A DNA stretch of 64,000 nt from sequence record LR597660. One strand, given 5' to 3'. The position numbers and the translations under genes were made by a program. The first letter of the stretch is position 1, and the number at the start of each line of letters is the position of its first letter. This document shows positions 23,814-30,674 of the stretch, piece after piece. The stretch comes from Escherichia phage T4_ev151. The notes beneath the pieces were generated by a model that saw nothing but the letters and a program-made list of their open reading frames with translations, searched no databases and was not told where the DNA came from.

Positions 23814-24395
23814 CTAACCGAGCTTTTTAGTTAATTCGTTCCAATGTTTTCTACACAAAGAAACATAAATTTCATCACCAATACAGATTTGATTACCTTC
23901 TTTAACTGGTGTTCCATCTTCCATTAATCGAGCTGTCATAATAGCTTTTTTACCACAATGACAAACTGCCTTTAGTTCAATAAGTTTATCTGCAATCGCC
24001 AAAAGTTCTTTAGAACCTTCAAATAATTTTCCAGCGAAATCAGTCCTTAGCCCATAAGCCATAACAGGAACATTATATGTATCAACAATTCGACTTAATT
24101 GATGCACCTGTTCAGTTTTTAAAAACTGAGCTTCATCTACAAATACACAATGAATATCTTTTTGTGCTTCAGCCCATTTATAGAACTCAAAAATATCCAT
24201 ATCATCCGTAATAATATTCGCTTCCTGCTTAATTCCAATGCGAGAAACGACTTCACAGACAGAATCGCGAGTATCAATAGCAGGCTTAAGAACTAATACA
24301 CCCATTCCGCGTTCTTTATAATTATGTGCAGCAGTCAAAAGAGAAGCAGATTTTCCAGCATTCATTGCTGCGTAAGTAAAAATTAAACTCGCCAT
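23814..24395 (-). CDS. tk: Thymidine kinase
   Basis: 193 aa; P-loop AMNAGKS; C-terminal Cys pairs; matches recalled T4 Tk. Confidence 0.95.
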   Translation of the reverse strand: MASLIFTYAAMNAGKSASLLTAAHNYKERGMGVLVLKPAIDTRDSVCEVVSRIGIKQEANIITDDMDIFEFYKWAEAQKDIHCVFVDEAQFLKTEQVHQLSRIVDTYNVPVMAYGLRTDFAGKLFEGSKELLAIADKLIELKAVCHCGKKAIMTARLMEDGTPVKEGNQICIGDEIYVSLCRKHWNELTKKLG

Positions 24396-24404
24396 ATCAC
24401 CTTC

Positions 24405-24590
24405 TTAAAGCATATTCACATAAGCTATTAATTCGTTTTCTTTCTTATCAAACCGATCAGCAAATTCTTCTTGCTGTTCTGGAGATAGCGGGCCGTATTC
24501 ATCATAAAAGGTGTTTGCTTCTGTATGCTCATCTAGAAGTTCATGGATAAGCTCAAACAATTTATCTTTTTGTTCTTTACTCAGACTCAT
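24405..24590 (-). CDS. Hypothetical acidic small protein (tk.1 position)
   Basis: 61-aa ORF, ATG start. Confidence 0.5.
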   Translation of the reverse strand: MSLSKEQKDKLFELIHELLDEHTEANTFYDEYGPLSPEQQEEFADRFDKKENELIAYVNML

Positions 24591-24760
24591 ATATTAATTT
24601 CCAGGAGTTTTAAAATAATTCGCTTTTGCTTAAATATTTCCATAGTTAAATGACCAGTATCTTTTTGACCGATTCCAATGGCAAAACCTTTATTGACAGC
24701 GAGTTCAATTAAATTATCAAGCTCACGTAACACTTCATACTGTAACTCAAAACTATTCAT
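24587..24760 (-). CDS. Small ORF (57 aa), not in ORF track
   Basis: MNSFELQYEVLRELDNLIELAVNKGFAIGIGQKD...; ATGA overlaps on both sides. Confidence 0.4.
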   Translation of the reverse strand: MNSFELQYEVLRELDNLIELAVNKGFAIGIGQKDTGHLTMEIFKQKRIILKLLEINI

Positions 24761-24969
24761 TTCGGTTTACCTTCTTTAACGAAATCTGGATAAGGATAAA
24801 ATCCCGAATAAAATCCTTCACCTTTATGATTGATGCATCCTTTATTAGAACAATAGCACCAATAATCGAAATCACAAGCCATTTCATCGTTGCATAAAGC
24901 AAAAACAACTGGCCATTTACACTTTTCACAATGGGCATTTTTAAGAATACTAGTTTGGCTCATAACCAT
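24757..24969 (-). CDS. Cys-rich small protein
   Basis: 70 aa with several CxxC/CxC pairs. Confidence 0.5.
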   Translation of the reverse strand: MVMSQTSILKNAHCEKCKWPVVFALCNDEMACDFDYWCYCSNKGCINHKGEGFYSGFYPYPDFVKEGKPK

Positions 24970-25172
24970 GTAACCTTTAAGCAGTATTCTTCTACATGCT
25001 GTTTACGACCTTTCTTATCAATAAAGGTATATTCAACGAATGTTCCAATGTAGTCTTTATCTACATCATGCGGACTATTAATTGGACATTTAGTACGGCA
25101 AATGCGTTCCCATTGACGAATAATTACTGCCTTATTCTTTGGGTCATATGGATGTGGATAATGTATATTCAT
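24960..25172 (-). CDS. Hypothetical small protein
   Basis: ATG 25172 (track TTG 25187); ATGA overlap with upstream stop. Confidence 0.45.
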   Translation of the reverse strand: MNIHYPHPYDPKNKAVIIRQWERICRTKCPINSPHDVDKDYIGTFVEYTFIDKKGRKQHVEEYCLKVTWL

Positions 25173-25636
25173 AATAACGGTTCCCAATCAACAATCACAA
25201 TTTCTAATTTAGAGGAATATGTATCTAAAATCCCCTCAATAATATCCCAGTTCCCTTTACCTATGCCTGCACCAATCCTAGGCATATAGATTGTAGGTTT
25301 AATCAGTTTATTTTCACCAAACTCATTTAATTCTAACATACAATTCATTAAAGCGGAATACTCAAAATTTGGCCCTGGTTGAAATTGAGTATAAAGGTTG
25401 AAGCAATACGCTTTATGAGTCCTAAAGTATTTTTCATAGACTGAGTAAGAACCGAGTTTAGTTACATCACCCCATTCAGTCTGTAATTTATCAGCTTCCA
25501 AAATTTTAGGGAAAGCTTTGGTTAATTGACCCGCTACGCCTGAACCCATAGTATGAAAACAATTGCATCCATGCGCAATAATATTACCTTGAAGAAATAG
25601 GGCGACAATATCGCCCTTGATATATTTTACAATCAT
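25169..25636 (-). CDS. Macrodomain protein, TARG1/OARD1-like
   Basis: 155 aa; YIKGDIV...IIAHGCNCFHTMGSGVAGQL and IYMPRIGAGIGKGNWD match recalled TARG1 motifs. Confidence 0.6.
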   Translation of the reverse strand: MIVKYIKGDIVALFLQGNIIAHGCNCFHTMGSGVAGQLTKAFPKILEADKLQTEWGDVTKLGSYSVYEKYFRTHKAYCFNLYTQFQPGPNFEYSALMNCMLELNEFGENKLIKPTIYMPRIGAGIGKGNWDIIEGILDTYSSKLEIVIVDWEPLL

Positions 25637-25974
25637 CTAGTACTCAATCCTCGATTATAAGAATCTACCAAACGGTCAACCATTGAATGACAAGCGGCTT
25701 TATCTTTCTCCTCCGCAACTGAACATTCTAAGGTATTCCACTTTTTAGCATATCGTTTTAACAATGTATCATTTTTGTATCTGCTTGATTTATCTCTTTC
25801 TCCGTCTTTATATGCATATATTAATTTCTGCGCAAATTCAGCTTGGCATGCTTTATTTTTCCCGCAATAATCCGCTGCAGTACGGTTTACATACTCTCTA
25901 ATTTCAGTATATGATGTATCTGCTAACGCAGAAAATGAAATTAATCCTATACATAAAACCAAAATTTTAGTCAT
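25633..25974 (-). CDS. Secreted small protein (signal peptide; vs position)
   Basis: 113 aa; N-terminal MTKILVLCIGLISFSALA; several Cys. Confidence 0.5.
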   Translation of the reverse strand: MTKILVLCIGLISFSALADTSYTEIREYVNRTAADYCGKNKACQAEFAQKLIYAYKDGERDKSSRYKNDTLLKRYAKKWNTLECSVAEEKDKAACHSMVDRLVDSYNRGLSTR

Positions 25975-26981: not shown

Positions 26982-27009
26982 GTTGTTCTCCTCTTAACTG
27001 ATAGAAAAA

Positions 27010-27038
27010 TTATACCACAGTCAAGAGGAAAAGTAAAC
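27010..27038 (-). promoter_or_regulatory. T4-type early promoter upstream of regB
   Basis: Minus strand GTTTAC, 17 nt, TGGTATAAT. Confidence 0.6.

Positions 27039-30143: not shown

Positions 30144-30674
<531 letters not shown>

Follow-up and report, generated by a model that had tools for sequence, protein, structure and literature searches.

On DNA that carries ADP-ribose on thymidine, the macrodomain protein SCO6735 of Streptomyces coelicolor removes the mark more quickly than either DarG or TARG1, being the fastest of the three compared, and it rescues E. coli from the toxin DarT. In the same comparison human TARG1 also took DarT-made marks off DNA. SCO6735 lacks both the Lys and the Asp of TARG1, and its Q85A and N27S mutants are dead or nearly so. 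DarG itself is without the TARG1 Asp, and mutation of the equivalent Asn lowers its activity, as the SCO6735 paper reports. Moreover, SCO6735 Q85A, DarG K80A and TARG1 K84A, all catalytically dead, still inhibit DarT in vitro. Among phage proteins, gp104 of PhiKZ strips DarT2-made ADP-ribose from DNA in vitro, and its N23A mutant is impaired (Cell Rep 2026, PMC13309987). For T4, a transposon library was screened on a DarTG2-expressing host (bioRxiv 10.1101/2025.11.20.689424, Nov 2025); tk.4 was the sole significant hit, a clean knockout made T4 DarTG2-sensitive, and the gene was named adfM, for anti-DarT factor Macrodomain. The same name, AdfM, was given to PhiKZ gp104 by a separate group. Here we analysed the counterpart of this gene in a stretch of 64,000 nucleotides from Escherichia phage T4_ev151 (LR597660), hereafter the window. 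Overall, tk.4/adfM encodes a free-standing macrodomain that most likely cleaves DarT2-made thymidine-ADP-ribose and thereby gives escape from DarTG2, a reading to which we assign a probability of about 0.72.

The gene is an ATG-to-stop open reading frame (ORF) of 155 amino acids, occupying exactly 25169..25636 on the minus strand in the ORF listing of the window. A reading made from the DNA letters alone (the sequence-only reading) had placed a 155-residue gene here, in the tk-vs region; the coordinates are correct, and the strand, which it left unstated, is minus. The ORF lies between the gene for thymidine kinase (23814..24395) and vs (25633..25974), its direct neighbours being tk.3 downstream and vs upstream, and the gene order around it is the same in the window, in T4 and in Escherichia phage vB_EcoM_DalCa. 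The window protein and T4 Tk.4 share 97.4% identity (151/155 residues), and the two genes have the same neighbours and the same 5' hairpin. T4 RefSeq labels the gene that lies there, with tk.3 and vs on its two sides, as "phosphatase; Tk.4; contains A1pp phosphatase motif". By identity and by position between tk.3 and vs, the ORF belongs to the T4 Tk.4/AdfM orthologous group of Tequatrovirus, that is, it is the orthologue of T4 tk.4, lately named adfM. The 1-kb stretch around it matched 661 phage records, Tequatrovirus for the most part, and is 99.3% identical to that of DalCa, whose genome is colinear with the window and carries tk.4 at identical coordinates. With tblastn, relatives of Tk.4 were found in 2778 phage records. 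Neither the gene nor its role is new, the function having been published recently, and to find tk.4 in a T4-like genome is ordinary.

Tk.4 consists of one macrodomain. The Pfam family Macro (PF01661) matched residues 22-132 with 27.7 bits (E 2.9e-6) against a gathering score of 22, which puts the protein in the macrodomain superfamily, and PHROG 335, labelled "phosphatase", matched with an E-value of 2e-66. Sequence matches in the PDB were BT1257 of Bacteroides (3e-9), yeast Poa1p (9e-7), SCO6735 (3.5e-4), Thermus aquaticus DarG (7e-4) and human TARG1 (1e-3). Taken together, these matches go far beyond chance. The AlphaFold2 model built from 85 sequences reached a mean predicted local distance difference test score of 95.9 and a predicted template modelling (TM) score of 0.91, and it has the three-layer alpha/beta/alpha arrangement of the macro fold with two Gly-rich ADP-ribose-binding loops. 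A Foldseek search of the PDB with this model returned TARG1 at the top (4.5e-10), followed by Poa1p (TM 0.81), BT1257 and DarG, so that the nearest structural neighbours are of the ALC1-like class and not of the MacroD, viral or PARG types. These fold and profile searches place Tk.4 in the ALC1-like macrodomain class with TARG1, DarG and SCO6735/BT1257, and close to Poa1p. The sequence-only reading had seen a macrodomain of the TARG1 and DarG kind, with which the Pfam, PDB and Foldseek results agree. Its narrower label, TARG1/OARD1-like, is right as to class and wrong as to family. With human TARG1, Tk.4 shares class, size, the PRIGxG loop and the GD motif; the catalytic Lys84-Asp125 dyad is absent, and membership of the TARG1/OARD1 family was therefore rejected.

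We next turn to the active site. Tk.4 and 117 homologues were aligned by MAFFT with TARG1, SCO6735, BT1257, two DarG macrodomains, PhiKZ gp104 and the ALC1 macrodomain; the comparators other than TARG1 came from tool output and a paper. A second, independent alignment, in which the profile hidden Markov model (HMM) of the Tk.4 family was run against each reference, gave the same residue placements. All three signature blocks that had been read from the sequence are present. GDIV corresponds to residues 8-11. Residues 21-36, AHGCNCFHTMGSGVAG (25529..25576, minus strand), align as strand beta2 and the first Gly-rich, phosphate-binding loop, and contain His22 and Asn25; residues 118-131, MPRIGAGIGKGNWD (25244..25285, minus strand), align as the second Gly-rich loop, which binds substrate and diphosphate. 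Between them, residues 80-84, NLYTQ (25385..25399, minus strand), form the end of the central beta-strand according to both alignments, and in the model strand E75-84 likewise ends at Gln84.

Gln84 aligns with Lys84 of TARG1, Lys80 of DarG and the corresponding Lys of PhiKZ gp104 on the one hand, and with Gln85 of SCO6735 and the Gln of BT1257 and ALC1 on the other. A plain pairwise HMMER comparison had set Cys78 opposite the BT1257 Gln; this was an ungapped artefact, and both the homologue-bridged MAFFT alignment and the family profile place Gln84 there. Asn25 aligns with Asn27 of SCO6735 and Asn23 of PhiKZ AdfM, and in the MAFFT alignment the ALC1 macrodomain has an Asp in this column. Gly126 occupies the column of TARG1 Asp125, and Gly124 is the counterpart of SCO6735 Gly128. 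The earlier observation that the TARG1 Lys and Asp are not conserved thus held up under two alignment methods (K84 is replaced by Gln84 and D125 by Gly126). The residues that stand in Tk.4 are nevertheless strongly conserved: Gln84 is found in 117/117 homologues and Asn25 in 116/117, HGCNC is almost invariant, and P119, I121 and G124 are invariant. Among 80 bacterial relatives, NxYTQ is retained in 78/80 and HGCNC in 72/80. As aligned, the active site of Tk.4 is of the Gln type, like that of SCO6735, and not of the Lys type seen in DarG and PhiKZ AdfM.

Others have established that T4 needs tk.4 against DarTG2, and that dT-ADP-ribose is hydrolysed in vitro both by SCO6735, which is Gln-type, and by PhiKZ AdfM, which is Lys-type; established here are the ORF, its fold and class, its orthology with T4 Tk.4, and which residues make up its active site and how well they are conserved. 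From these we infer a hydrolase with DNA thymidine-ADP-ribose as substrate, the individual steps being modelled on SCO6735. Tk.4 would be transcribed early, probably together with regB, vs.1 and vs, and possibly translated in step with vs through overlapping stop and start codons. The protein would then bind the ADP-ribose that host DarT2 places on thymidines of single-stranded phage DNA, its two Gly-rich loops holding the diphosphate and the distal ribose, while Asn25 would position Gln84 against the distal ribose. Water-mediated cleavage of the ribose-thymine bond would release free ADP-ribose and restore replicable DNA, and the phage would escape the DarTG2 abortive defence. That the protein could reverse ADP-ribosylation made by DarT, as had been proposed from the sequence, is supported by the published genetics, in which a 97.4% identical orthologue is needed for DarTG2 resistance, and in the main the sequence-only reading was right.

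Several points weigh against the assignment as a hydrolase or speak for the idea that Tk.4 is a non-catalytic binder, which binds and blocks DarT2 or shields ADP-ribosylated sites without hydrolysis. The ALC1 macrodomain, which we take to be a non-catalytic binder, also carries Gln in the Gln84 column, though without the Asn. The longer, Lys-bearing mobile loop that was proposed for DNA binding in SCO6735 is absent from Tk.4. The TARG1 dyad of Lys84 and Asp125 is replaced by Gln84 and Gly126, and because SCO6735, DarG and TARG1 inhibit DarT through binding even in their dead forms, protection of the phage is no proof of hydrolysis. The genetic evidence comes from a preprint on T4 and not on the phage of the window, the knockout plaque assays were done at 30 C, and ADP-ribose removal by T4 AdfM only "seems likely" to the preprint authors (10.1101/2025.11.20.689424). 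The papers found contain no biochemical assay of Tk.4. The sequence-only reading had itself concluded from the lost Lys and Asp that the protein may bind rather than hydrolyse. This does not follow, since DarG works without the Asp, SCO6735 is Gln-type, has neither residue and is active on thymidine-ADP-ribosylated DNA, and Gln84 and Asn25 are conserved in Tk.4. The same Gln is functional in SCO6735, and Tk.4 retains the positioning Asn where ALC1 has Asp; the near-invariance of both residues across the 117 homologues, and the NxYTQ of 78/80 bacterial relatives, also speak for a catalytic role. In addition, the C-terminal DarT-binding domain of DarG is absent from the 155-residue Tk.4, and many bacteria carry members of the family near which no DarT2 homologue was detected (see below), which argues against a toxin-specific binder. 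We therefore regard a purely binding role as unlikely, although binding may contribute to the action of Tk.4, given that the dead enzymes keep their inhibition of DarT in vitro.

Two further substrates were considered for a catalytic Tk.4. The kinship to Poa1p, an ADP-ribose-1''-phosphate phosphatase of yeast that acts on a small-molecule substrate, and the "phosphatase" labels would suit an ADP-ribose-1''-phosphate phosphatase or O-acetyl-ADP-ribose deacetylase that clears metabolites derived from nicotinamide adenine dinucleotide during infection. The name, however, was transferred from domain similarity with no assay behind it, and the sole phenotype found is specific to DarTG2. Strong similarity to Poa1p is confined to the N-terminal ~96 residues, and a further stretch at the C-terminus fell short of significance. 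At the mutant sites of Poa1p (H23, S30, F152), Tk.4 has His22, and Thr29 lies about at S30 when the pairwise alignment is read by eye; by the same approximate alignment, Poa1p apparently has Ser and not the invariant Gln at the key position. No source of ADP-ribose-1''-phosphate is known in T4 infection, and a Poa1p-type activity seems to us distinctly improbable. The other substrate would be the marks of the phage's own Alt, ModA and ModB, whose erasure could tune or time the take-over of the host, and the sequence-only reading had named the phage's own ADP-ribosyltransferases as a possible target. T4-type phages encode three such enzymes, no other eraser is known in them, and tk.4 sits among other early-type genes. 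But Alt and ModA are described as arginine modifiers, and ALC1-like macrodomains, which act on Glu/Asp esters and on nucleic-acid linkages, are not known to cleave Arg-ADP-ribose. In the transposon screen, moreover, tk.4 was reported for DarTG2 alone, as expected if the gene is dispensable on plain E. coli K-12. Such a role is accordingly the least probable of all those considered here, and we give it very little weight. Cleavage of DarT2-made thymidine-ADP-ribose remains the reading that we prefer.

Where, then, does Tk.4 come from? In a scan of one genome per bacterial or archaeal species, at least 527 loci encode relatives of Tk.4, with carriers among Roseobacter-group bacteria, Desulfobacter, Calothrix, Hymenobacter, Vibrio and many others. 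Neighbourhoods, like the bacterial motif counts above, were evaluated for the best 80 loci. At these loci the relatives are mostly stand-alone ORFs of ~150 amino acids. No DarT2 was detected within 4 kb of them by single-sequence phmmer with the Pseudomonas aeruginosa DarT2, a search that a distant DarT could escape, and no recurring partner gene was found around them. The commonest "neighbour" cluster was discarded as an apparent antisense shadow ORF, its representative overlapping the macrodomain gene on the opposite strand. Because the relatives stand alone, with no DarT2 homologue detected within 4 kb and no recurrent partner, these data suggest that Tk.4 derives from a free-standing macrodomain family and not from a DarTG2 operon. 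A wider reading, which we offer only tentatively, is that Tk.4/AdfM is no captured DarG but belongs to a large stand-alone family, common to bacteria and phages, whose signature is HGCNC and NxYTQ. Its members would perform Lys-independent, water-mediated cleavage of thymidine-ADP-ribose through Gln and Asn, with a short loop unlike that of SCO6735. If so, an enzyme of the Tk.4 type would act on any such ADP-ribose adduct whatever the toxin, possibly including protein Glu/Asp or RNA adducts, and would be a broad "eraser" and not a DarT2-specific countermeasure.

The organism labels of close homologues should be treated with care, since one homologue assigned to a "Bacilli bacterium" metagenome-assembled genome sits on a T4-like phage contig with Rnl1, a Dda-like helicase, polynucleotide kinase and a spanin. 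On this contig, a distant one among T4-like phages, the Rnl1 RNA ligase gene is followed two genes further downstream by the Tk.4 homologue (L004, 41-343), and a DUF4326 gene adjoins Rnl1. DUF4326 is, we believe, related to NADAR; if that is right, the contig carries both kinds of ADP-ribose eraser at a short distance from each other. A scan of the first 86 kb of phage T5, the DarTG2-sensitive control in published assays, found no ORF of the Tk.4 family (best match, 9.8 bits); the last 36 kb hold late genes and the terminal repeat. The T5 gene T5.105 (L006 7789-8295), annotated "Sir2 (NAD-dependent deacetylase)", did not match the Tk.4-family profile. It has DxDGVLN near its N-terminus, which looks like a haloacid dehalogenase-type phosphatase motif, and the Sir2 label is probably wrong.

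Within the window, the only amino-acid changes relative to T4 Tk.4 are A15L, E16Q, K18N and N19I, all in one surface turn that leads from helix 1 to strand 2 (residues 15-19; 25580..25594, minus strand). The window protein reads LQGNI here, whereas T4 and DalCa both have AEGKN. Beyond this turn the gene differs from that of T4 at six nucleotides, none of which alters the protein. Relative to DalCa there are seven nucleotide differences, all within gene nucleotides 39-56, the rest of the 468 nucleotides being identical, and this 18-nucleotide stretch sits just downstream of the hairpin described below. The turn also varies among homologues (LEGNI, SKGNN, LSGKN and others). From these comparisons, the stretch looks like either a surface turn under diversification or the trace of a short conversion.

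As for expression, tk.4 overlaps both neighbours by ATGA: the vs stop and tk.4 start share 25633..25636, and the tk.4 stop and tk.3 start share 25169-25172 (both minus strand, from ORF coordinates and sequence). These overlaps suggest co-transcription and possibly coupled translation of tk.4 with its neighbours. Upstream of regB, at 27009..27037 on the minus strand, a consensus scan found a sigma-70-type promoter-like site, TTTACT-17-TATAAT preceded by a TG; it is the best consensus match of the region and coincides with a promoter annotated in DalCa. It is likely to be the early promoter for regB, vs.1, vs, tk.4 and tk.3. A terminator-like scan found, within tk.4 codons 7-13, a G+C-rich 8-bp hairpin, AGGGCGAT ATT GTCGCCCT (25599..25617, minus strand), and a T-rich run comes after it. 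The hairpin lies ~20 nucleotides into the coding sequence, is identical in T4 and is annotated as a rho-independent terminator in DalCa; it might serve in attenuation or in mRNA stability. RNA folding pairs the Shine-Dalgarno and start region of tk.4 with upstream sequence. In a 2026 preprint based on RIL-seq, the tk.4 transcript of phage T2 pairs with the host small RNA ArcZ, and the protein was detected in infected cells. No link to Tk.4 was found in the CmdTAC paper.

The surroundings of tk.4 depart from T4 in the small-ORF block between tk and tk.3 (24405-24969), while tk.3 itself is 100% identical to T4. In this block the ORF at 24405..24590 is the counterpart of T4 tk.2, and T4 tk.1 is absent. 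The ORFs at 24587..24760 (57 amino acids) and 24757..24969 (70 amino acids) have no counterpart among T4 tk.1, tk.2 and tk.3, and the latter is Cys-rich (CEKCKW...CNDEMACDFDYWCYCSNKGC). Some 5 kb upstream of tk.4, a Nudix hydrolase gene lies at ~30186-30626 on the minus strand, according to the DalCa annotation. Its probable counterpart in T4 is e.1/NudE, which is reported to hydrolyse ADP-ribose. In that case the phage would carry a would-be releaser of ADP-ribose together with an ADP-ribose degrader.

How does Tk.4 compare with the systems introduced at the outset? SCO6735 and BT1257 are ~25-29% identical to Tk.4, and the three positions Gln84, Asn25 and Gly124 align with Gln85, Asn27 and Gly128 of SCO6735. 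The SCO6735 subclass is also defined by a mobile loop five residues longer than that of DarG and TARG1, with Lys89 and Lys94, and this Tk.4 does not have: its loop, QFQPGPN, has the DarG/TARG1 length, and those of SCO6735 and BT1257 are 6-7 residues longer in the alignment. The motifs differ as well, HGCNC and NxYTQ in Tk.4 against H(V/I)CND and NMIGQ in SCO6735/BT1257. Because its third loop is as short as in DarG and TARG1, Tk.4 is not a strict member of the SCO6735 subclass. Identity with DarG was likewise rejected. The NCBIfam equivalog model of DarG, NF048014, scored 30.4 bits against a cut-off of 250, aligning over model positions 2-146 of 338 only, and the PADLOC DarG model matched in its macro part only. 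DarG has a catalytic Lys (FPTK; K80 after the central strand in T. aquaticus) and a second, DarT-binding domain, and it is encoded beside darT. Tk.4 has Gln84 and no second domain, and its gene adjoins vs and tk.3, with no adjacent toxin gene.

PhiKZ AdfM, like Tk.4, is a phage-encoded stand-alone macrodomain that defeats DarTG2, and it is imported into the phage nucleus (PMC13309987). It is of the DarG-like Lys type (FPTKDNW), with an E-value of 9e-25 to Mycobacterium tuberculosis DarG; its similarity to Tk.4 is remote and amounts to 8/33 identities (E 0.003) in a pairwise comparison and to 36.9 bits against the Tk.4 profile. Since Tk.4 is Gln-type and of a stand-alone family, and PhiKZ AdfM is Lys-type and DarG-like, the sequences indicate that the two AdfM proteins are independent solutions. 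The notion that T-even phages carry layered, chemistry-specific erasers of DNA ADP-ribosylation is already in the literature, with AdfN (NADAR) for the guanine marks of DarT1 and AdfM (macrodomain) for the thymine marks of DarT2. To this, our analysis adds the Gln-type active site of T4-type AdfM and its membership in a widespread family of stand-alone macrodomains.
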